Source: Cetorhinus maximus
Lineage: Eukaryota
Direction of reading: 5' to 3'
Length of the DNA stretch: 64,000 nucleotides
Assembly: GCF_964194155.1 (NCBI RefSeq)
Contig: NC_135909.1
Span: forward strand, 19,840,001 to 19,904,000
The translations under genes were made by a program, and so were the position numbers. Shown piece by piece: positions 4,331-62,354 of the stretch (positions are counted from its first letter, which is position 1; every line of letters begins with the position of its first letter). The notes under the pieces are model-generated. The model was not told where the DNA came from. It saw nothing but the letters and a program-made list of their open reading frames with translations, and searched no databases.

Positions 4331-5002
4331 ATGACTGATACTGCAGCCGCCGAAACGGCTCCTCCAGCCGCTGCCGCTCAAGTCAAATCTCCCAAGAAGA
4401 AGAAGGCGGCTTCCCGATCGAAGGCAGCCGGTCCCAAGTTAGGCGAACAGATCCTCAAGATTGTGGCGGGTTGCAGCGATCGCAAGGGGATGTCCCTGGC
4501 CGCGATAAAGAAAGCTTTGTCTGGCAGCAGTGTCGATGTGGGGAAGCTCGGCTCCCAGATCAGGCTAAGTATCAGGAGGAAGGTGGAGAGCGGCTCCCTG
4601 GTGCAGGTAAAGGGACAGGGCGCCTCCGGCTCCTTCAAAATCCCTAAGAAGGAATCCCAGGGGAAAGTGGGAAAGAAGGAGAAGAAACCAACAGCCAAGA
4701 AATCTTTAGTGAAGAAACCAGCGGCCAAGAAGGTGAAAACAAAAAAACCAGCAGCTAAGAAATCTCCAGCCAAGAAAGTAACAGCCAAGAAATCCCCAGC
4801 GAAGAAAGCAACAGTCAAGAAAACAAGCAGCAAGAAGGCGGCAACTCCAAAAAAGGCGGTGAAGAAAGCAGCGCTGAAGAAAAAATCTCCCGTCAAGAAG
4901 GTGACGGGCGGAAAGGTTTTAAAAAAAGTGGATAAATCGTCGAAGGCCAAGCCCAAAGTGAAAGCAGCAAAGGCTAAGAAAGCAGCGCCAGGAAAGAAAT
5001 GA
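4331..5002 (+). CDS. H1: Histone H1 (replication-dependent linker histone), 223 aa
   Basis: Globular domain (GMSLAAIKKAL...LVQVKGQGASGSFK), Lys/Ala/Pro-rich tail with S/TPxK motifs, upstream AAACACA (AC box) ~4180, 3' stem-loop. Confidence 0.97.
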   Translation: MTDTAAAETAPPAAAAQVKSPKKKKAASRSKAAGPKLGEQILKIVAGCSDRKGMSLAAIKKALSGSSVDVGKLGSQIRLSIRRKVESGSLVQVKGQGASGSFKIPKKESQGKVGKKEKKPTAKKSLVKKPAAKKVKTKKPAAKKSPAKKVTAKKSPAKKATVKKTSSKKAATPKKAVKKAALKKKSPVKKVTGGKVLKKVDKSSKAKPKVKAAKAKKAAPGKK

Positions 5003-5038
5003 AACCAGCCGAGCAAATTGTAAACCTCTGAACACAAA

Positions 5039-5079
5039 GGCTCTTCTCAGAGCCGCCCACGTCTCTCAGGAAAGAGCTG
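5039..5079 (+). terminator. Histone stem-loop and histone downstream element (H1)
   Basis: GGCTCT-TCTC-AGAGCC followed by GGAAAGAGCTG. Confidence 0.9.
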
Positions 5080-5749
5080 ATCCCCGAATCAAATGTCCCT
5101 GTCCCGGCGCTGGGAGCAGGTTTCACACTGAAGTGATTTATATTCAATTGAAAATTCCCGGTATCTCACTGACATGCACTATATCCAGCCCCTCCCCCAA
5201 TCTGCAATAAAACAGCGGGGTCCGTGCACCATTGTAACTGGGGATTTGTTCAGCTGCTCTGTCAGTTTCTGCACGTTCCCTTTTCACAGATTCAAGGTGA
5301 GAGTGTGTAAGACAGTTACCCGGGCGGAGTAACCCCGCGTTACAACTCAAAGCCCAACACATGAGTTTGTCTAATTCAGCTTGAGTGAGGTGTCGGTAAA
5401 CTGCTCAACCCTCCTGGAGGGGAGGTGTGTGGGGATAGAACAGAAGCTGGGAGTGAAGTGGAAACAGGCGGATTTGACGGGGTATAGTGTATGTACTTGG
5501 GCTGGAATATTACAGAATTTTATTTGTAAAGGTCTGCAATTAAAAGCTGCGGGTTTCTAGAACAGTTGAACATGAAGCTCCAATCGATAAGTTTTGTGCC
5601 GAGCGCTGTGTTAACTTCCATTGTCGACAATTAAATAAAATGTCGTTTCGACAGGCAGGGGGTGGAGCTGGATTATCATAGACATTCCTCTGTTCTGTCT
5701 GTCATTTAGTCTCCTCCCCGTCCCGCCTCTCACTCTATGCTCCTTTCTC

Positions 5750-5776
5750 AGTCAGGTCGGGGCGGGCTGTATAAAG
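5750..5776 (+). promoter_or_regulatory. H4 promoter (GGTC site II-like element, GC box, TATA)
   Basis: TCAGGTCGGGGCGGGCTGTATAAA ~60 nt upstream of the ATG; mirrored in copy 2 (GGTCCG...TATAAA, 20848-20870). Confidence 0.7.
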
Positions 5777-5824
5777 GAGGAACCGAAACAGCTCATCTCT
5801 CATATTCAGCAGCGATCTGAGTGA

Positions 5825-6145
<321 letters not shown>

Positions 6146-6180
6146 ACAACTCGACTCTCTCTACCAAACACAACAACAAA

Positions 6181-6221
6181 GGCTCTTTTAAGAGCCACCC
6201 ACCGCCTCACAGAGAGAGCAG
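6181..6221 (+). terminator. Histone stem-loop and downstream element (H4)
   Basis: GGCTCTTTTAAGAGCC-ACCCA followed by AGAGAGAGCAG. Confidence 0.93.
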
Positions 6222-7034
6222 AAACCTGGGAACGGGAGCTGGGATGCGCTTTGATCTGGAATGTTAGTGCCTGATTTGTTCTGGACGGGAATGTACTGAG
6301 AATCTTTTTAATGGTTTATTTACCCGGATGGCCCATTCTGCACTGACGCTGAAAGGCCTCTCCACTGCCTCATATTTTCGATAGGTTCTGTTTTAAATGA
6401 ATAATTAGTCAGGTAGTAATGACAGGATCTGGCGGTTCCTCTGACACCAGCCGTTCAATCCGTCAGTGGATTTGAGGTTACAATCATATCAGGATCAGGC
6501 GAGGCAGGCTTGATGGGCTGAGTGGCCTCCTCCTGCTCCTAATCCAAATATTCGCACGTATGTTCGTGTAGACTTAGACTGGGAATAACGGAAATTCGAG
6601 CCGCTCTTTATCGGCATGAACAGCCCAGAATGAGGGCAATGGGAAGGGGTCTGATGCCCCCAGCACCGTTTCTATTTTATTTCCCATTCCATTCCTCGAA
6701 GTGAGCGGCGATTTCGAGGGTTTTTTTTTTATTTTTTATTTTTTTGATTTCGAGGGTTAGTTGTGCTGTAGGGAGCAATGGACAGTCCTTCAATTTTTGC
6801 CTCGGAAATTCAGCACTGTCTTTACACAGTTCAAACAACAGACTGGTGTTTCTGTCTAAAAATGAGCAGATTCACCAGGATGATACCTGGTTTAAAAATT
6901 GCCGGGACAGATCACATGAACTGGAATTTCATTGGGGTTAGGAAATAGCGAGTGAGAGTGAAAAATTGTATTTTAATTTACAAAAAAGGGAAGAACGAAG
7001 CATATTCTCGAGACGGGAATCGGCTGCAAACAAT

Positions 7035-7668
<634 letters not shown>

Positions 7669-7697
7669 AACCCGGCTTCAGCACCAAGTACAACAAA

Positions 7698-7738
7698 GGC
7701 TCTTTTAAGAGCCACTAAATCGACAAATGAAAGAGCTG
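7698..7738 (+). terminator. Histone stem-loop and downstream element (H3)
   Basis: GGCTCTTTTAAGAGCC followed by TGAAAGAGCTG. Confidence 0.93.
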
Positions 7739-8049
7739 CGATCTCCTGTTAAACACTCCAGCACTTAAACAACTCGAAGATAAAATTTATTCTCCCTTGC
7801 ACCGGTTTATTTGTCTTGTCGACATAGCGGTTGTAGAATTGAGAGAATACAGATGATGCAGTTATCAATTGCAGCTCAGGTTATGTCTGCGAATATTTTA
7901 GGCCAAGGATTTTTTTCCAACGAATTGCGGCACAGGGTGAGGTACGGTTTGTAAGTCAATACTCATTGTTATTATAAGGTTACACTATGAACATGAAGCG
8001 ATTGTCCGAGAGTAACCCTCCAGTGCGCAGATATTTTTGATGGTTGTTT

Positions 8050-8570
8050 TTAGTCAGTTATACAGCAAATAAACAGGCCGCTCGTGTCCGTGCCGGACTG
8101 ACTATCCTTGATTAATCCTTGCCTCTCCAAGTGGAAATTAATTGTGTCCCTCAGAATCTTTTTCATAAGTTTCCCTACCACTGATGTTAAGAGTGACTGG
8201 CCTATAGTTCTTTGGTTTATCCCTAGCCCCCTTTTTGAATAATGGAAACCATTAGCTGTCCTCCAGTCCTTTCACCTCTCCTGTGGTCAAAGATTTGAAA
8301 ATTAATAACAGGGTGCCTGCAATCTCCTCCCTTGCCTTCCACAGCAGCCTGGGAAAATCTCATCTGCCCGTATAGGAAGGATGTTGTTGCACTAGAGAGG
8401 TCATAGCGTTATACAGCACAGAAACAGGCCCATCGTAACCGTGCCGATCATCAAGCACCTATCTATTCTAATTCTATTCTCCAGCACTTAGCCCGTAGTA
8501 CTTTTAGTTATGTCGTTTCGAGGGCTCAACTAAATACTTCTCAAACGTTGTGCGAGTTCTTCCTTCGCCA
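8050..8570 (-). mobile_element. Patchwork of CR1-like fragments between the H3 and H2A 3' ends
   Basis: CR1 tails (TACAGCACAGAAACAGGCC) and an ORF2 piece (TTCCCTACCACTGATGTTAAG). Confidence 0.55.
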
Positions 8571-8621
8571 TTATTGGTCCAGAATCACTTACAAATTTGG
8601 TCCGGCCGCGGACAGACAATA

Positions 8622-8664
8622 GTTCACCCTTTCACAGACTCTGTGAGTGGCTCTGAAAAGAGCC
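8622..8664 (-). terminator. Histone stem-loop and downstream element (H2A)
   Basis: Reverse strand GGCTCTTTTCAGAGCC (8649-8664) followed by GAAAGGGTG. Confidence 0.92.
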
Positions 8665-8694
8665 TTTGGGTTATTAGATTAAAGAATGGCCGCT

Positions 8695-9168
<474 letters not shown>

Positions 9169-9867
9169 TCATTGGTCTCTGTTCAATCCACTTATTTGCC
9201 TATATTCTTCACCAATCAGATAAATGGAAGCAGAAAAGGGCGGGATTTGCAAATAACCGTCAGAACCAGAAAAATGTCCATTTTAAAAAGCCCGCCAATT
9301 TCACTGCGGGAAAGAAGCGGATTAAAGTAAATGTCGTCTTTGGTCTGAGATTTCAAATCCCTTCTCTTTATTTGGTTTTATTCAACTCGTGTCATCACCA
9401 ATCGCAGGCGCGGGTTTTATCATTTTGTTTAAATGTGGTTCATTCTCCTGTCGCTTTCTAACTGTCCCGGGAGGGAATCAATCCCGGGTCACCGCTTTCC
9501 CAGGAGTGAAACATTCCGTTCAGACTTCACTCTGAACCGAACACCCTTCGCTGTAAAGAGGGAGCTGATCGAGTCCTCAGACTGTTCTTATTCCGCTCTG
9601 TAATAATCCCACTCCGGCTGTTACCCTGCGGAAAATTAATAAAATGACTCAGTAACTGTTTCAGGAATTGGGGGAAGGGACAATTAAAGTTGAAAACAGC
9701 AGCTAATGAGGCCACTTAAAGGCTGTGATAACAGAATAACCGCTTTCAGCACAAAGCGAAGGCCGATGAGCTAATTAAAGGGTTAGTGTCTGGGTTACAG
9801 GACAGGAGACACTAACAGCAGTGGAAGTTATTTTATATTATAATAATCCAGTAGGAAGATGTCGGGT

Positions 9868-9909
9868 GCAGCTCCTTAGTAGAGATTGTGAGTGGCTCTT
9901 AAAAGAGCC
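9868..9909 (-). terminator. Histone stem-loop and downstream element (H2B)
   Basis: Reverse strand GGCTCTTTTAAGAGCC (9894-9909) followed by AAGGAGCTG. Confidence 0.92.
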
Positions 9910-9948
9910 TTTGTGTTGTGAATGTGTTTTTCAGTCCGTTCGGGGGTT

Positions 9949-10326
9949 TTACTTGGAGCTGGTGTACTTGGTCACCGCCTTTGTCCCTTCCGACACGGCG
10001 TGCTTGGCCAGTTCCCCGGGCAGCAGCAGGCGCACGGCGGTCTGGATCTCCCGGGAGCTGATGGTGCTGCGCTTGTTGTAATGGGCCAGGCGGGAAGCCT
10101 CACCCGCGATGCGCTCGAAAATATCGCTCACGAACGAGTTCATGATGCTCATGGCCTTAGAGGAGATGCCGGTGTCGGGATGAACCTGCTTCATCACTTT
10201 GTAGATGTAGATGGCGTAACTCTCCTTCCTCGACTTTCGCCGCTTCTTGCCGCCCTTTCCTGACGGCTTATTCACCGCTTTCTTGGCGCCCTTCTTAGCA
10301 ACTGGTTTCTTCTTCTCTTCAACCAT
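9949..10326 (-). CDS. H2B: Histone H2B (copy 1), 125 aa
   Basis: ATG at 10326, [12 protein letters not shown]...[20 protein letters not shown]...YTSSK. Confidence 0.98.
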
Positions 10327-10377
10327 CTTCAATCTCAATTTCAGACACAGAAATAAACCAAACCCCTTCCGTCCGCT

Positions 10378-10535
10378 CATTAAATAGACAGTCTGACAGA
10401 TATATGCTAATGAGGAATGAGAAAACAACAATTCTTATTGGACATTTTTAAAAGAAAACAAGTTCTTAATTTGTGATTTATTTGATTGGATAGAGAAATC
10501 GACCAATCATATTTAGCTTTCTCCACCAATCATAG
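10378..10535 (-). promoter_or_regulatory. H2B promoter: TATTTAA, variant octamer ATTAGCAT, CCAAT boxes
   Basis: ATGCTAAT at 10404-10411; several CCAAT/ATTGG between 10437 and 10530; mirrored at 15195-15350. Confidence 0.7.
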
Positions 10536-10779
10536 GCCTCCTTACTGCAATCAGGAAATACTTTTTACAAAGACCCTCTCCAGGCGGAATTTCTCAGTGT
10601 GTAAAGATACACCAGGAAATGTCGCCTGGCAGTCGGTGCGAGGGACTGTACGGTAATGTGGGGTTCCCTCAGGAATTGTGAGGCTTTGGTAAAGTCTGTG
10701 ATTGTGGGATTTATTCACTCCCTGATTCTGTGTGTGAGAGTGGGGTTCCTTCACTGTTTGGAAGGCCGTGGTACAGTGT

Positions 10780-11650
10780 GCGAGGGCTGGATTTCTTCTG
10801 TGTCTGTGACTTGATGGGACCATGTCTCAGTGTTGGATTCACTTGATATCCTGAGGCTCATTGTGCATCTGTCCGTTATTGGTGCATGTAAGTGAAATTA
10901 TTGGCTCCTTGGGACTATAAGACAGTGCGGAATTAAATCAGCATATGTTTCTCTCGGCCACGAAAAGTATTGGATTTATTCTGTACATGTCAATCTCTGT
11001 AACTGTATGTGAATGAGATTCTTTATTTGTCAGTCCATGTCATTGTAGGTCAGAGTTGTATTGATTCTATGTCTTTCAGCCTGTGGTACTATCTCTGAGT
11101 CTGAACTTCTCATTCACTGTCAATATCTGATACTGTGTGTGAATGTGAGATTAACTCTGTACCTGTCAACATCCTTTGCTGAATGGGAGTGTGAAATTCA
11201 GTCTGTATCGGTCAGTCTCTGGTACTGATTCAAAGTGTGTAATTCATTCTCAATAGGTCCATCTCTTGCAATTTTTGACAGAAGTAACCCCACTGTCACA
11301 TTCGGCACCAAAGACTGACAATGTAGAATTTGCCTCAATGGATAGTATTGGTATGAGTGGGATCAATTCTCTCTCAATCAGTGGTACTTTATGGAAGCTT
11401 GCAAATCATTTTGTTTCTGATGGACTCTGGTACCCTGTGTAAGCGTTGAAGCCATTTTCTAACTCAGTGCCTGATGCTTTGCAGAAATGAAGGATTCATT
11501 TTGTCCCTATCAGTTTTTGGCTGTAAGATTTTTCTGTGTTTCTTGGTCTGTGGTACTGTGTGAATGTCAGATTCATTCTGTATCTCTACATCTCTGGGAC
11601 CAGTGATTACTAACTCTCTAGATGTTTGCAGAATTGGGTCTACCTGAAAA
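10780..11650. repeat. Degenerate ~46-nt tandem repeat array
   Basis: Repeated ATTCATTCTGTATC..TCAGTCTCTGGTACTG..TGTGAATGTG variants. Confidence 0.65.
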
Positions 11651-12789
11651 TTTCTCCACTTCAGCGTTAAGTTCACATTTTCATATCAGATTGACAATCT
11701 TTTTTTAAAATATTTAGCAATCTTTATACACATAAATGTTTAAAAAGTCAGACTTGTCAACTGCTCGTTAGACCTGTAATTATCTCACCTTGTGTTGTGA
11801 GTGAGGAGATTCCCCACTGGGTCGTGCAAAACAGGAATCTGGCTGGAAATTAATTTCAATGCCTGGAAATCAGGTAGAATACAAGTCTGAATTTCTGATT
11901 TACATCCTTAGTAGATCAGGCTTCTCGCTGGGAGAGTGAATTTGAAAAGTGGTGTTTAAAACCAAACAAACCAAGGTAGATCCTTCCTCATTTGCTGAGG
12001 CAAATCCAATGAAAGCAGTTATACTGCAGTAGGAGAATTTTGGGATAGGTACCAGACACAGCTCAGGGCAACTAAACCTGCTATCAGGGAGTGTAAAGGG
12101 TAATGGAGAAGGGGATGGCAGATACATGAATCCCAATATAGAGTTATCCATGTTGCAGTTGAAACCTCATCAGTAATCAGCACTGGCTTAGAATAGCTGG
12201 GCCTATTAACCTCGGGAAAGGATGGATGTCGAATGGATATGACCGCTGTCCATAAATAGAATCAATTGTGTGCATGTGAATAGATAAGTTGAGCTCACTG
12301 CACAAAGAAAAATAGAAAAAGAACAAAAGGAAAATTAAACAGGCCTGCGGGGAAGAATATGTGAGCAGCTGAGCTGCTCTTGCAGAGAGCTGGCACAGAT
12401 ACGATGGGCTGAGTGGCCTCCCTCTGCTGTAACAATTGCGAGATTCTAATCTATGTAGCATGAGTGTAAGCCTGACTTATGTTTAATATAAAATGTGTTT
12501 CAACTGGAGTTAATAGCTGTGGGTATTAATCAGTTATTATGTCAGAGTTTTGGATTAAAATTCCATCTCTGTCAACACAACCCTGAATGTCTGTATATCA
12601 CACAATCTGATACATCATCTAGCTTGTAGACACTCTGAGGTTGGGGGAGTGGTATGTAATGCATAGTTCAGTCTGTAGTATGGGTACAATATTGGGATTC
12701 ATGCAAGATCTTACAAGTGGGTACTGTTTGTCTGATCTCTTTGTCATTTAATGTGTATTTAAGGTTCTCCTTTTGTTTTGGTAACACAG

Positions 12790-13935
12790 GGCCTTGCAAT
12801 CTGAGGGGGGTGTAATTTTGCTCAGCAATTTGCAAAGATCCCACACAGGAGTTTATTACACAAAATTAGAACATGTGATTGGGGATCAAACATTAGCATG
12901 GATCAAGGATTAGTAAATGGACAGAAAACAGTGTCGGAATAAACAGGAATTTTCGGATTGGCAGGCTCTAACTTACTCTTGATAAAACACAGCCATCAGT
13001 TACTTACAACATATATTGATGATTTAGTTGGGTACTGAATGGAACATATTCAAGTTTGTTGATGATACAAAATTGGTGGAAAATTAATCTGTGAGGACAC
13101 AAAAAACCTGCTAAGGCATTTAGACAGGTTGTCTGAGTTGTCAAGAACATGGCAGATAGAATACAATATGGTAGTGTGGGTGGGCCCAGTTTTGAAGGGG
13201 GAAAAAAGAACATGTTTGAATGTGAGACTGGAACACGTTTGCACTCAGAGGGAGCTGGGTGTCCTTGTACATGAATTACAGAAAGTAAAACTGCAAGTAC
13301 AGCAAGCAGATAGGAAGGGAAGTGTTATGTTCACATTTGTTCCAAAGGTTTGAATTACAGGAGTGAAAAATCTTCCATTTATCCAGGGCACAATTAAGGC
13401 TACACCTGGAGTACTGTGTGCAGTTTGGTCTCCTTACATAAGGAAGGGCATAGTTGCTTTAGAGGGAGGGCAATAATTGTTCACTAGCTTGGTTTCTGTG
13501 ACAAGTGGATTTCTTATGAGGGGAGATTGAGGAGACTAGGTCTATATTCCCTGGATTTTAGAAGAATACAGGTTATCTAAATGAAACAAATAAAACTCTT
13601 AAGCGGCTTGTCAGGGTAGATGCTAAGAAAATGGTTCTCCTGGCTCCGGAATCTACAACATGTGGTCACCATCTCAGATCACAGCATTGGCCATTTTGGA
13701 ATGATATGAGGAGAAATGTCTTCACTGAAAGTGTTGAGATTCTTTGGAATTCTCCACCCCAGAGAGATTTGGAAGCTCAGCCATTGAGTATGTTCCAGAC
13801 AGAGGTCAATTGATTTTGGATACTAGGGATATAAGGAGAGTGCGGCAAAGTGGAGTTGAGGTAGAACATCTGTCTGAATGAATGATGGAGGAGGTCGAAT
13901 GGCCAAATAGCCAAGTCCAGCTCCTATTTCTGAAG
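12790..13935 (+). mobile_element. CR1-like LINE ORF2 and 3' UTR relic
   Basis: Decayed (F)ADDTK RT motif (TTTGTTGATGATACAAAA ~13056), QRELGVLVHE, CTGGAGTACTGTGTGCAGTTTGG, 3' tail. Confidence 0.85.
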
Positions 13936-13949
13936 GTTTAATGCATCAG

Positions 13950-14660
13950 TCCATCTATTCTGCTCGATGTGAGATTCAGGTGTATTCTGCACCAGTCAGT
14001 CTCTGGTACTATATATAAAGCTGGGATCAATTGTATGTCTGTTGGCACCTGGCAAGCGATGTGAATGTGTGATTCAATCTTTATCTGTGATTCATGAACC
14101 TGAATGTGAGTATGTGATTCATTCTCAAATTTCCATTCTATTAGTATGACATTTGAATGTGAAATTTGCATGTCAGTCTTTGACACTGTACATGTGAGAG
14201 TTTCATTCCATATCTGTTGGACTTTGTGATGTGTGACTGTGGAATTGACTCCGTATTTACCACTTCGTGATACTGTGAGTGTTTTCTCCTTAAGTAACTG
14301 CCAGTCTTTGGTAATTGATGTCTGACAATGTAACTGTGAAGCTTTGGCCTGTTTGTAAGGCATTCTTTCTGTATCTATCAGGCTCTGGTACAGATTGAGC
14401 TTTTGGGACTCAACCTGAATTGTTCAGTGGTACTGGAAATTCATTTTCTATCTCTTAGTCTCTGGTAGAGTGTCTGTGTGGGGATGTTTTTGTCTTTATT
14501 TCTGTGTATATGTGTAATTAATCCTGTATTACTCAGCCTCTGGTACTGAGTTTACATGTAGGACTCTGGCTGTATTTGTCAGTCACTGGTAACACGTGTG
14601 GCTGTGGATGGAAGATTCTTTCTATACCTGTCAGGATATCATACATGGTTTGATTATGGG
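13950..14660. repeat. Degenerate ~46-nt tandem repeat array
   Basis: Same unit as at 10.8-11.6 kb. Confidence 0.6.
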
Positions 14661-14743
14661 ATTATTTTAATATAGTTCAATGGTCCTGAATGTAAATTTG
14701 GGAATCATTCTGAAACTCCCATTCTTTAATAATGTGTGTGCGT

Positions 14744-14902
14744 GAGTTGAAGAGTCATGACTCTGTTCTGTTGAAGGGTCATGAGGACTCGAAACGTCAA
14801 CTCTTTTCTTCTCCGCCGATGCTGCCAGACCTGCTGAGTTTTTGCAGGTAATTCTGTTTTTGTTTTGGATTTCCAGCATCCGCAGTAGTTTTTTGTTTTT
14901 AT
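14744..14902. mobile_element. Penelope-derived short element with hammerhead-like core
   Basis: GTT-CTGTTGA-A-GGGTC-ATGAG-GACTC-GAAACGTC-AAC followed by the family body GATGCTGCCAGACCTGCTGAG. Confidence 0.75.
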
Positions 14903-15393
14903 GACTGTGTGAGTGTTTGTTCCAGCGGACCACAGCCTCAAGAACAAATTTCACTCCCGATACTCCAACCCCCTACCACTCACACACACATACACAATAT
15001 CCCAGTGAGTAAGTCGCACAAGTTACAAGAGTTCCGGGAGGAATCCCGCATTTCCGTGCAGTCCCTCTGTGGAGAAAGGCCCCTCGCACCGACAGCCAGA
15101 CAACAATTCCCGGTGTATCTTCACAAACTGAGAAACTGGGACTAGAGAGAATCCTGATAGAATATATTTCCTGATTGTCGTAAAAGGGCTAATGATTGGT
15201 GGAGAAGTCGAAATTTGATTGGCCACTTTAAAAATGCAAACAGAGAAAAGTACAAAATAAGTGGCTGTTGTATTTTATGAAATGTCCAATCAGAATCATC
15301 GCTTCCCCATTCCTCATTAGCATTGGTCTGTCAGACTGTCTATTTAATCGGCGCTCGGAAGTGGTTCGTTTTATTCTGCGTCTGAAAGTGACG

Positions 15394-15768
15394 ATGGTTG
15401 ATGAGAAGAAACCAGCTCCCAAGAAGGGAGGCAAGAAAGCCTTAAAGAAACCGGTAGTGAAGGGCGGCAAGAAGCGGCGAAAGTCGCGGAAGGAGAGTTA
15501 CGCCATCTACATCTACAAAGTGATGAAGCAGGTTCACCCCGACACCGGCATCTCCTCCAAGGCCATGAGCATCATGAACTCGTTCGTGAGCGATATTTTC
15601 GAGCGCATCGCGGGTGAGGCTTCCCGCCTGGCCCATTACAACAAGCGCAGCACCATCAGCTCCCGGGAGATCCAGACCGCCGTGCGCCTGCTGCTGCCCG
15701 GGGAACTGGCCAAGCACGCCGTGTCGGAAGGGACAAAGGCGGTGACCAAGTACACCAGCTCCAAGTAA
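15394..15768 (+). CDS. H2B: Histone H2B (copy 2), 124 aa
   Basis: ATG at 15394, [11 protein letters not shown]...YTSSK. Confidence 0.98.
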
Positions 15769-15807
15769 GACCCCCGAACTGACTGAAAAACACATTCACA
15801 ACACAAC

Positions 15808-15848
15808 GGCTCTTTTAAGAGCCACCCACAATCTCTCTGAAAAAGCTA
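15808..15848 (+). terminator. Histone stem-loop and downstream element (H2B)
   Basis: GGCTCTTTTAAGAGCC-ACCCA followed by TGAAAAAGCT. Confidence 0.92.
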
Positions 15849-16664
15849 TATGATTTCTTTAGTTATAAGTTATGATTTTACTATGGAGAATTTCGAATTT
15901 TGAAATTATTATTTTGATCACGTTTCAATCAGATTCTCGGTAACGTAGATTTAACTCGTTCAATTGTTGGGCTTCGTTCATGATGTCCCATAAATTAATG
16001 ACTTGCCGCTCACGAAGCGATTGTTTTAAGACGCGTCATATTCGACCCCTGTCCCTGGTTTTGGAGAGAGAGCGAATATAACGCAAATGCCTCAGGTTCC
16101 AATTCGGTTCAAGTTTCGCCTCAATAATCGATCAGTTGATTTCCTATTAGCACCGGTTGTGCAGCAAGCTTCAGTCTCGACGCTGGCAAATTTACTCCAA
16201 GCATGTTCAATTTTGGCTGTCCCAAATATCTACAATTTCCCGTCTATCAGCAGAACGATGTAAATGGCACTTTCAGCCGGCTGCTTAGAAGGTTTCATGA
16301 CGGATCGAGATTATCTAGAATTGATGCCGGATTCTTAAAGCGAATCCGGAATTTAGGATAAAATGTGAAATAGTCCCATTAGGGACGGACATTTTTGAAA
16401 CTTTGTCGTCAGACCGTGTTCACTATTAACTGGATTTTCTATATGAAATGTATTTCTTGTTTTATAAATATATCGATGTAGAATTAAAAAAATACATTCC
16501 GTAAATTTGCGCCATTATTTTCGACTTGTTTTCAGATACACATAAACCCAGACAGAAAATCAGAAATTGAAATATACAAATAACTGTAATCCAGGGAAAG
16601 AGAGAGAGAGATGAAGAGAATGTAACATTCGAATACTAAATACTGAATAACCATTTCCAATTAG

Positions 16665-16762
16665 GACTCGAAACGTCAACTGTGTTCCTCTCCGTAGATG
16701 AATTTTTCCAGGTATTTTTGTTTTTGTTTCAGATTTCCAGCATCGTCTGTATTTTGCTTTTA
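16665..16762. mobile_element. Truncated Penelope-derived short element with 9-bp TSD
   Basis: GACTCGAAACGTCAAC...CCAGCATC flanked by TCCAATTAG at 16656-16664 and 16763-16771. Confidence 0.75.
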
Positions 16763-17066
16763 TCCAATTAGTACTATGTTCGATCCGTTCTTTTTTGGCT
16801 TTTTTTTTTACAAATTTGGCGGGCTTTTAAAATTTGAAAAAAAGATCGGTTGGAATCTCAAAATTTGGAGCCGGTCTTTTCCGCCCTCACTCCGTCAAGT
16901 CTCCGGACTGGTGAGTTCAGTAGATATCTGATTGGTGATATGAACAACATTATGAGACGCAGCACAAAGTGACCAATCAAGCAATGCCCGCAGCACCATT
17001 CCTCCCGAAGCTATAAGAGAAGCGAATGTGAGAGGATTTCCTCATTCTCTATTAAAGTGTTTGTGA

Positions 17067-17468
<402 letters not shown>

Positions 17469-17498
17469 AGCGGCCATTCTTTTATCTGATAAGCCAAA

Positions 17499-17540
17499 GG
17501 CTCTTTTCAGAGCCACTCACAGAGTCTGTGAAAGGGTGAC
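17499..17540 (+). terminator. Histone stem-loop and downstream element (H2A)
   Basis: GGCTCTTTTCAGAGCC followed by GTGAAAGGGTG. Confidence 0.93.
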
Positions 17541-17589
17541 CTATTATCTGTCTGCCGCGTGCCGAATTTCAGTAATGGTGAAGCGTTTC

Positions 17590-17862
17590 TAATGATCCGC
17601 AAGGACAACCAACTCGCATCAACAGAGAAATTACATTTCCACCCGCGTGGTTCGGGACTGGAATGCACTGTCTGGAAGTGTAGTGGAGGCAGGTTCAATA
17701 GAGGCATTCAAGAGGGTATTAGATGATTATTTGAATAGAAAAAATGTGCAGGAATGGGGGATGGGGGTAGCATTAGGTCATAACACTCATTTGGAGAGCA
17801 GATGCAGACATGCGCAAGGGCCGAATGGCCTCCCGTGCTGTGCAAATTCTTTGATTCTATGT
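17590..17862 (+). mobile_element. CR1-like 3' end fragment
   Basis: VRDWNALSGSVVEAGSIEAFKRVLDDYL and tail GGGCCGAATGGCCTCC. Confidence 0.75.
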
Positions 17863-18211
17863 CTGTGCACCGGAGTCATCACCTCTTGTTGCTTGAGGCA
17901 TTGCCTTTATTGACATCATGAGCACTGACTTGTAACCCGCAGCTCACCCTTTGCTTGGGATTGATGTCTGCTCGCAGTATTTAATACATTTTCACAGCCG
18001 CTTTTTATTGGAAGTGACCTACAGCACTAAGGTGACCGCAGTCCCAATTTTCTGCTGAAATTAATATACCATCTGCGCTACAATTTACAACTGCATCGTC
18101 TGTGATTATCAATCCCACAAAAGAGGTTTGTAGACAAGAAAAATAAACTGATGCAAGGGAGCAAATTGTATCTTCGCGATGTCTAAGTCCTGGAGTGGAC
18201 AACAGGAGATT

Positions 18212-18253
18212 GCAGCTCTTTCATTTGTCGATCTGTTGGCTCTTAAAAGAGCC
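18212..18253 (-). terminator. Histone stem-loop and downstream element (H3)
   Basis: Reverse strand GGCTCTTTTAAGAGCC (18238-18253) followed by TGAAAGAGCTG. Confidence 0.92.
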
Positions 18254-18282
18254 TTTGTTGTACTTGGTGCTGAAGCCGGGTT

Positions 18283-18888
<606 letters not shown>

Positions 18889-19208
18889 TTAATTGCCCAT
18901 TTCAAAAATTCGGCCTTTATTTCCAGCCGTTGACCGACTCGATATCAGAAGACTTTGTTCCTCAATTTTTAAAAATTAAAAATACCATTTCACTGCAATT
19001 CAATATTTCCTTACCCGAATGAAATTCCTGTTCAGTTAACCTCTTCCAACAATTTTTAAACCCGGCATCATCCTGATGAACCTGCTTATTTTTGGACAGA
19101 AACACCAGTCTGTTGTTTGAACTGTGGAAAGTCAGTGCTGGACTTCGCAGGCAAAAATTGACGGACTGTCCATTGCTCCCTACAGCACAACCAACCCTAA
19201 AATTCACC

Positions 19209-19401
19209 GAAACAAAAATAAAAATGCCTTGAAAAACTCAGCAGCTCTGGCAGCATCTGCGGAGAGGAACACAGTTAACATTTCGAGTCGCTATGACTCT
19301 TCAACAGATCCTCTCCGCAGATGCTGCCAGACTTGCTGAGTTCTTCCAGGTATTTTTATTTTTGTTTTGGATTTCCAGCATCCGCAGTTTTTTGTTTTTA
19401 T
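19209..19401. mobile_element. Penelope-derived fold-back element with imperfect TSD
   Basis: Inverted family halves; flanked by CCTAAAATTCACC and CCTAAAAATCGCC. Confidence 0.75.
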
Positions 19402-20205
19402 CCTAAAAATCGCCGCTCCCTTAGAGGTCTGGAGTGGGTAATAAAATGGAACCGGTGCTGGGGGCTTCAGATCCCTTCCCATTGCCCTCATTCTGGGCTG
19501 TTCATGACGATAATGAGCGGAGAAAGTGACCGGCTCGATTCTCCCGCTATTCCCGGCCTGACAGATCCCGGTTCCTGAAAGGAGATGACAAATTCTGAAA
19601 ATAGCTCCGAAAATAGCGCCAAGATCTTGTGACAGGGAGCGCAGTATAACAGATCATAAAGTGAGAGATTAAAAATTGTTGCCTGAAAATTAAGATTATC
19701 TTGCATTTTCCAACACTGGAATTGGCGGGCTTTTCGAATGCAAAAAAAAGTAAATCAATCATAATTTTCGATTTCTTCTCCCTGACTCAGCGATTGGTTA
19801 AGAATTAGACTAGGAAGAGGCTGACCAATCAGAGCTAGAGTCCGGCTGCAGTCGCTCAGACTGCGGGAATTCCAGGTCGCCGAGTGGCTGAGCTGAAACT
19901 GCTGTTTCCCAAACCCTGTCAGTAACTTCACGAACATCCGTCCGAACATTGGGTTTCGGAGCAGGAGGCCACTCAGCCACGAGCCTGAACCTATTCAGTG
20001 AAATCATGGCTGATCTGATTGTAACCTCATACACCACTGACGCATTGAACGGCTGGTGTTACCTAAAATAAAACATTTCGAAAATGTGTAGTGGAGCGGC
20101 TTTTCAGCGTCAGTGGAGAATGTGCCATCCAGGATAATAAATAACGATTAAATTGAGGGACTTAGTACATCCCCCCGAAACCCGGAACAAATCATGCACT
20201 AAAAT

Positions 20206-20353
20206 GAAAGAAAAATACTGCGGATGCTGGAAGTCTGAAATATAAACAGAAAATGCTGGAAACCTCAGTCGGTCTGACAGCATCTGTGTAGAGAAAAGAG
20301 TTAAACCCTTCTAGTCTGTATGACTCTTCTTCAGAGATCTTGTTTGTTTCAGA
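20206..20353. mobile_element. Penelope-derived short element with TSD, absent from the homologous site in arm 1
   Basis: CACTAAAAT / CACTAACAT flanks; empty site at ~6260-6270. Confidence 0.75.
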
Positions 20354-20399
20354 CACTAACATTCCCGATCACAGCCCATCCCAGCTCCCGTTCCCAGGT

Positions 20400-20442
20400 C
20401 TCTGCTCTCTCTGTGAGGTGGTGGGTGGCTCTGAAAAGAGCC
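20400..20442 (-). terminator. Histone stem-loop and downstream element (H4)
   Basis: Reverse strand GGCTCTTTTCAGAGCC-ACCCA (20427-20442) followed by AGAGAGAGCAG. Confidence 0.93.
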
Positions 20443-20476
20443 TTTGTTGCGTGTTTGGTAGAAAGGGTCGAGCTGT

Positions 20477-20797
<321 letters not shown>

Positions 20798-54374: not shown

Positions 54375-54464
54375 GACTGCGTGGCCTAATGGATAAGGCG
54401 TCTGACTTCGATGGTACTTGGTGAGGTTATCAGAAGATTGCAGGTTCGAGTCCTGCCGTGGTCG
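54375..54464 (+). tRNA. tRNA-Arg(TCG) with a 17-nt intron at 37/38
   Basis: GACTGCGTGGCCTAATGGATAAGGCGTCTGACT-TCG-A-[54412-54428]-ATCAGAAGATTGCAGGTTCGAGTCCTGCCGTGGTCG followed by TTTT; 73 nt after intron removal. Confidence 0.92.
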
Positions 54465-54739
54465 TTTTATGTAGAAATCTGTTTAATTTCCTGAAAACCG
54501 CGGTCTCACTCGTCAGCTGAAGTTTCTGCGTTTCCTTCCTAACATGGCAGGGCTCTTTCTCAAAATGTCTGCTCTTGTTAATTTGTGCATTCATTTCTAA
54601 CTGATTTTGTTTAACTGATCACGTTCGTTAAATTATTGATGTGTCCAACTGGAACAAAAGCTGTGCATCAATCGGTTTAATAAAATGCTTTGGGAGAATT
54701 CCAATCTTCTCATGAAGCGGCTCGATCATTAGCTGAATC

Positions 54740-62270: not shown

Positions 62271-62354
62271 GTCAGGATGGCCGAGCGGTCTAAGGCGCTG
62301 CGTTCAGGTCGCAGTCTCCTCTGGAGGCGTGGGTTCGAATCCCACTCCTAAACA
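62271..62354 (+). tRNA. tRNA-Leu(CAG), 3' acceptor strand altered
   Basis: GTCAGGATGGCCGAGCGGTCTAAGGCGCTGCGTT-CAG-GTCGCAG...GGTTCGAATCCCACTCCTAAACA (consensus TCCTGACA); T-run downstream. Confidence 0.9.

Follow-up and report, generated by a model that had tools for sequence, protein, structure and literature searches.

In animals, tRNA introns hardly occur outside the families Tyr-GUA, Ile-UAU, Leu-CAA and Arg-UCU, a restriction that the earlier note on this locus had stated for human and mouse and that is backed by passages of two 2025 papers (van Hoof 2025, PMC12530127; PMC12168002). The second of these, Stuart 2025, surveyed 576 genomes by kingdom, and Arg-UCG receives no discussion in its section 12. 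According to portions of the literature on their structure and processing, tRNA introns range from about 6 to 133 nt, mostly 15-30 (PMC10485636, PMC4090602), and they are removed by TSEN, which measures from the tRNA body, needs a proximal pair and cuts on both intron sides, after which RTCB joins the exons (PMC10485636, PMC4090602, PMC10275265). The proximal pair follows a rule in which C32/U32 is matched with G/A at the third-last intron base (PMC10275265, in the section on this pair). The way in which tRNA genes acquire introns, and the reason why these persist in some families only, are presented as open questions in parts of PMC4090602 and PMC12168002, and a passage of the former regards it as unusual for one genome to hold genes with the same exons both with and without an intron.

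The window, i.e., the whole stretch of 64,000 nt of DNA that was analysed (NC_135909.1, positions 19,840,001 to 19,904,000), lies on a 24-Mb contig (contig C32) of the 3.99-Gb genome of the shark Cetorhinus maximus. It was found to contain a tRNA-Arg(TCG) gene with an insert next to the anticodon. We regard this gene, with a probability of about 0.72, as a copy of a multi-copy shark Arg-TCG family with likely true TSEN-type introns. The position, the length and the helix geometry of the insert, its family-wide presence, and the conservation of the exons and of the loop-facing intron bases are the basis of this reading.

An Insert at the Canonical Intron Position of tRNA-Arg(TCG)

The elements of the gene are the following:

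54375..54464, + strand: tRNA-Arg(TCG) gene with a 17-nt insert (Rfam tRNA, 58.2 bits, E 5.4e-10)
54375..54411, + strand: 5′ exon (tRNA positions 1-37), which holds the A box and the anticodon and has A at position 37
54412..54428, + strand: 17-nt insert between positions 37 and 38, the canonical intron site; bases -3 to -7 of it are able to pair with 32-36
54429..54464, + strand: 3′ exon, tRNA positions 38-73, with B box
54465..54468, + strand: TTTT, a Pol III terminator-like run (putative function)

The insert (TGGTACTTGGTGAGGTT) starts one base 3′ of the anticodon. The first description of the locus as a gene with such an insert, A and B boxes and TTTT was confirmed, and ARAGORN, run with intron search, reported Arg(tcg) with an intron of 17 nt. 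Upon removal of the insert, the exons are colinear with those of an intronless Arg-TCG gene of the same genome, which places the insert at the canonical 37/38 position. All four stems (4/4) are paired, with two adjacent G-U pairs in the acceptor stem, despite which the body is intact for a ruler-type recognition. The insert is as short as TSEN-type introns are, with 17 nt in this copy and 13-17 nt across the Arg-TCG family, and it is also compatible with the cis requirements of tricRNAs.

The pairing between intron and anticodon loop, which had also been claimed from the first inspection, was found as described: the helix comprises three Watson-Crick and two G-U pairs, sets C32 on the third-last intron G and leaves a 3-nt bulge at the 3′ splice site. 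The cloverleaf reaches -26.8 kcal/mol with this helix versus -23.0 without it, and the probability of the C32:G pair in the window precursor is 0.47. In a chance control, an equally good helix was observed in 1.0% of 100,000 intron shuffles, and the C32:G pair alone in 41% of them, so that this pair means little in any one copy; it was present in 20 of 20 loop-intron variants. The whole window precursor folds no better than shuffles (z -1.04), and its folding energy is uninformative.

An intron in a gene reading TCG could also arise if an ordinary intron-bearing Arg-TCT gene mutated its anticodon to TCG, and such switches do occur in this genome, where three of 30 Arg-TCT-type loci (L039, L041 and L043) read TCG. 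However, a comparison of the window gene with five Arg-TCT bodies gave 23-25 differences in 73 exon positions, versus 4/73 with the intronless Arg-TCG gene, and its intron is, by eye, unlike the 71 Arg-TCT introns. The window gene was rejected as a switched gene because it has neither the exon body nor the intron of Arg-TCT, and this explanation is next to impossible. The three loci themselves, with Arg-TCT body, TCG anticodon and intron, would inflate automatic counts of Arg-TCG introns.

Processing of the Arg-TCG transcripts would be of a known kind. Pol III would use the A and B boxes of intact copies and transcribe up to the T-run; the tRNA body would be bound by TSEN, with C32 paired to the third-last intron G, and cut by it at the 37/intron and intron/38 junctions, and the RTCB ligase would join the exons. 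The ligation product would be a CGA-reading tRNA, which for 5 of the 59 copies compared should match that of the intronless gene, as the exons of those copies are identical to it. The exon variants A2, A37 and U68 are confined to intron genes.

A Multi-Copy Family in an Amplified Histone-tRNA Cluster

A genome-wide search with a gapped anticodon-arm pattern revealed 53 matches, of which 51 have an insert of 17 nt, one has an insert of 16 nt and one is intronless, and its reversed-pattern control revealed none (0 matches). An insert unique to the window copy, named in the earlier note as part of what would refute its reading, is not what was found, as 52 of the 53 pattern matches carry one. A census based on a 3′-exon pattern gave 58 matches, among which one intact intronless gene, on contig C27, and no second one was found; these Arg-TCG counts are lower bounds, since divergent genes go unnoticed by exact patterns, as might an intronless isodecoder whose body is different. 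Three matches to the 3′ exon, on contigs C1, C14 and C21, were set aside, as the 5′ half of each is not Arg-TCG and Rfam detects no tRNA there. The sole intact intronless Arg-TCG gene found (L061, 4938-5010) is placed 3.5 kb from a Trp-CCA gene, outside the cluster of contig C32.

A DNA search, with 40 of 169 candidates scored, showed that at least six genes are identical, the window copy included. These genes reside in recent segmental duplications, and the window copy need not be the active gene of the family. Further members came to light when divergent copies served as queries: nine in which anticodon and B box are broken, and 17 that have a 13-nt insert and a damaged D arm. Altogether, 85 intron-bearing copies, in several diverged lineages, were found on contigs C32 and C1610, and the insert lengths define 17-, 16- and 13-nt lineages. 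An assembly error or a one-off insertion, for which no point speaks, is excluded by these 85 copies together with relics on three other contigs, and its probability is negligible.

The surroundings of the window gene comprise the following features:

4331..20788, strand unspecified: histone gene cluster (H1, H2A, H2B, H3, H4), in the same amplified histone-tRNA region
40551..40641, + strand: decayed intron-bearing tRNA-Arg(TCT) copy with anticodon TTT, first gene of the repeated module
46886..46975, + strand: tRNA-Pro(CGG) with a 19-nt insert at 37/38 (ARAGORN), a co-amplified neighbour with no T-run directly after it

The histone H1 of the window is most similar to that of lamniform sharks (96% for Cetorhinus maximus, 95% for Carcharodon carcharias), which assigns the genome to this group. 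There are nine histone ORFs in the window, and the 464-kb stretch around it (contig C32, 19.64-20.10 Mb) contains 33 ARAGORN tRNA calls and seven H4-like sites. Met-CAT makes up eleven of these 33 calls, which we take to be of the initiator type. The window gene is the last one of a repeated Arg-TCT / Pro-CGG / Arg-TCG module, whose spacing recurs elsewhere on contig C32 and of which a diverged form is found at 21.49 Mb. An annotator would call the Arg-TCT copy of the window module Lys, given its TTT anticodon. At 62271-62353 of the window there is a tRNA-Leu(CAG) of 41 bits in Rfam, whose acceptor stem is mismatched. The first 70-100 nt 3′ of the Arg-TCG gene (window 54465-54560 and paralogues) can be aligned across all lineages of contig C32, and the upstream flanks are of unrelated types, which indicates that the gene has been shuffled along with its 3′ flank into new upstream contexts.

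In 30 of 68 intron copies, all stems are paired, TTTT is present, and the loops are as in the intronless gene except for position 37; the other 38 fail this test of stems, loops and TTTT. Such figures bear on an improbable alternative, in which an old insert inactivated one Arg-TCG gene and was then multiplied with the histone block as a passenger, the single intronless gene making all the working tRNA. The copies do follow segmental duplications, more than half of the 68 are not intact, and the clades with broken anticodon and B box or damaged D arm were amplified as well as the others. Moreover, the existence of one intact intronless gene means that it could supply the tRNA alone, which counts against functional introns.

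Conservation of Exons and Loop-Facing Intron Bases

On a tree of the 68 copies, the number of parsimony changes per site was 0.56 in the exons, 1.06 in the first 100 nt of the 3′ flank and 1.65 in the intron. The difference between exon and flank held without the most divergent copy (0.53 versus 0.80, p 0.02) and without both this copy and the decayed clade (0.45 versus 0.78, p 0.005), with p-values that overstate the certainty, since the copies are recent duplicates and the 68 amount to a handful of independent lineages. Between the window copy and the divergent copy L066, 3/73 exon sites, 6/16 intron sites and 28/100 flank sites differ. A divergence of 3/73 in the exons, set against 28-33 of 100 in the flanks of the same lineages, is not expected of inactivated passengers. 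Exon conservation could also come from gene conversion.

Within the intron, the -3 base, which faces C32, shows no change in 68 copies (0 changes), and its G is present as well in the 13-nt lineage and in the relics on contigs C19, C3 and C36. The columns of the Watson-Crick loop partners (-3, -5 and -6), picked after the alignment had been seen, had one change, versus 27 in the remaining 14. Columns 1, 2 and 4 of the intron are also invariant, for which the loop-intron helix gives no explanation. The fixation of the loop-pairing bases in an intron whose remaining bases change faster than the flank argues against a mere passenger, as does the fact that retrocopy-like relics keep the intron.

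Decay is evident at the same time. Many exon changes of the Arg-TCG copies are CpG-type transitions, among them those behind both acceptor G-U pairs of the window copy, which suggests methylation and decay. Such changes, common as a passenger would have them, indicate together with the amplified decayed clades that most copies may be dispensable. On balance, the insert is considered real, family-wide and probably a functional canonical intron, in an isoacceptor deemed intronless in animals. Under this preferred reading, the intron would have entered one ancestral gene long ago and diverged into at least three lineages, and the family would have multiplied with the histone-tRNA block by segmental duplication, many copies now decaying.

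Position 37

The first inspection had pointed out A instead of the usual G at position 37. This holds for the window copy and for 16 of the 59 copies compared, the other 43 having G37. A37 was rejected as a mark of the intron because these 43 copies of the intron family have G37, and it is a subfamily variant only, which maps twice on the 68-copy tree and whose clade shows 97.8-99.6% identity over about 1.1 kb. The m1G37 modification counters frameshifting, and A37, as encoded, removes the usual m1G37 site. The odds that the window A37 copy is expressed are about even.

Dispersed Relics

Decayed intron-bearing Arg-TCG copies were also found on contigs C19, C3 and C36, with no upstream flank shared with the loci of contig C32. 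The C3 and C36 relics have about 75 nt of 3′ flank in common; against the lineages of contig C32, the 3′ flank of the C36 relic scores above background and that of C3 only at the shuffle maximum, and the flank comparison showed no shared 3′ flank for the C19 relic. These three copies look like retrocopies of an intron-bearing precursor RNA, and two of them, on C19 and C3, are closely strung together with other tRNA relics.

Tight chains of decayed tRNA copies were observed at L062 (4600-5000), L205 (877-1213) and L203 (950-1150), spaced by 3-25 nt in two cases, with some members keeping an intron or a short trailer. The members are presumably of different isotypes, and the chains look like joined precursor-tRNA retrocopies. 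One further relic, on contig C11 (L205), has no intron and contains an additional five bases where the exons meet; its trailer is CTTT as in the 13-nt lineage, unlike that of the intronless gene. It may be a spliced retrocopy, though it is too decayed to count and gives a weak hint.

Inserts in tRNA-Pro and Introns in Other Families

A wider repertoire of intron-bearing tRNAs had been inferred from the Arg-TCG gene, and the genome exceeds that claim, since inserts occur in all three Pro isoacceptors too. They were observed in 36 of 37 Pro-CGG matches and in 82 of 88 Pro-AGG/TGG matches, mostly with 12-19 nt at 37/38 for all three anticodons, on contigs C32, C12, C22, C7 and C4; the intronless matches were one CGG, three TGG and three AGG. 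Near-intact Pro-AGG genes with unrelated-looking introns and T-runs were found on contigs C12 and C22. In Pro-AGG/TGG, where base 32 is U, A prevailed at -3, with 74 of the 82 inserts, the others having G (5) or T (3) there (counted by eye), which fits the C32/U32 to G/A rule as given in the corresponding section of PMC10275265. In Pro-CGG, the -3 base was T in all 36 inserts (36/36), leaving no standard proximal pair and making Pro-CGG the weakest candidate for splicing.

Introns were present in all matches of Tyr-GTA (56/56), Arg-TCT (71/71) and Ile-TAT (36/36), and therefore the splicing pathway must be present. A tandem array of 20 Tyr-GTA genes was observed at 8.66-8.74 Mb of contig C5, and separate amplified Ile-TAT and Arg-TCT families on contig C24. 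The Arg-TCG intron would be part of a broader shark pattern, for which the enzymology is expected to be ordinary. More tentatively, and as a possibility that we hold below even odds, new introns that are spliced may have arisen in sharks in two or more unrelated kinds of tRNA (Arg-TCG and the three Pro isoacceptors), so that most of these tRNAs would be made via TSEN, and for each anticodon one to three genes without an intron would provide a supply independent of splicing and possibly tissue-specific.

Possible Origin of the Arg-TCG Intron

No donor of the Arg-TCG intron was recognisable by eye among the inserts of 56 Tyr-GTA, 71 Arg-TCT, 36 Ile-TAT and 118 Pro genes. One guess is that it arose by gene conversion inside the dense cluster; another is RNA-level insertion followed by retroposition, as proposed in a part of PMC4090602.

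The intron probably entered within the cartilaginous fishes, at odds of about 70 to 30 against ancestral retention. Under the latter, early vertebrates had intron-bearing Arg-TCG and Pro genes, which sharks kept and amplified and bony vertebrates lost, an account that differs from the preferred one in origin only and that we consider somewhat unlikely. It would suit introns that are old and diverged, such as the 17-, 16- and 13-nt lineages and the unrelated-looking Pro-AGG introns of contigs C12 and C22. In an all-eukaryote survey, UCG, AGG, CGG and UGG stand in the upper third for intron content, as far as the axis order of Fig. S7 of PMC12168002 tells, although this high eukaryote-wide rank may stem from fungi. 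A part of a preprint (10.1101/2025.06.08.657570) puts the age of the histone-tRNA cluster at more than 450 million years, but the preprint nevertheless speaks of shark expansion. Also against ancestral retention, GtRNAdb has essentially no introns in the remaining metazoan tRNAs, according to a passage of PMC12530127.

What Introns in Further Anticodons Would Mean

A vertebrate with introns in four more anticodons would correct the statement that only four carry them, and a gain of Arg-TCG and Pro introns would, if true, double the known intron-bearing anticodons in vertebrates. Such a gain would also offer an extant example of a tRNA acquiring an intron, one genome holding that tRNA in both forms, with the intron and without it. 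As some intron genes equal the intronless gene in their exons, the effect of an intron on modification, amount and tissue pattern becomes comparable, all else being equal. In the literature searched, no report naming Arg-TCG or Pro introns in a vertebrate was found, and automatic shark annotations may already list such genes; passages of a paper on zebrafish tRNAs (PMC11417395) and of the one on tRNAscan-SE 2.0 (PMC8450103) hold nothing on them.

Comparison with Known Systems

The four intron-bearing families of vertebrates (Tyr-GUA, Ile-UAU, Leu-CAA and Arg-UCU), as characterized in parts of PMC10275265, share with the shark genes the 37/38 site, a length of 13-19 nt, the base 32 pair, the 3-nt bulge and an intron sequence that varies. 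They differ in that the isoacceptors here are Arg-UCG and Pro-AGG, -UGG and -CGG, and in that splicing is here predicted.

The Squalomix preprint (10.1101/2025.06.08.657570) likewise deals with sharks, histone-tRNA clusters and expanded intron-containing tRNA loci. Its main text names no intron-bearing isotype ('arg' appears 0 times), and its Fig. 3A or supplements may hold the breakdown. Arg-TCG and Pro would thus name the isotypes behind the intron-rich tRNA sets reported for sharks.

Mammalian Arg-UCU, as treated in a section of PMC10485636, comprises four intron-bearing genes and one intronless, brain-specific gene. The shark Arg-TCG family resembles it in having many intron genes beside a single intronless gene on another chromosome, whereas the shark intronless gene shares its exons with some of the intron genes.

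The lineage-specific intron gains of yeasts, in Ala-UGC of Lachancea and Gly-UCC of Kluyveromyces (passages of PMC4090602), also placed an intron in an isoacceptor whose exons match the intronless genes of relatives. The shark case differs from these in being that of a vertebrate, with dozens of copies, and with intron-bearing and intronless genes of identical exons side by side in one genome.
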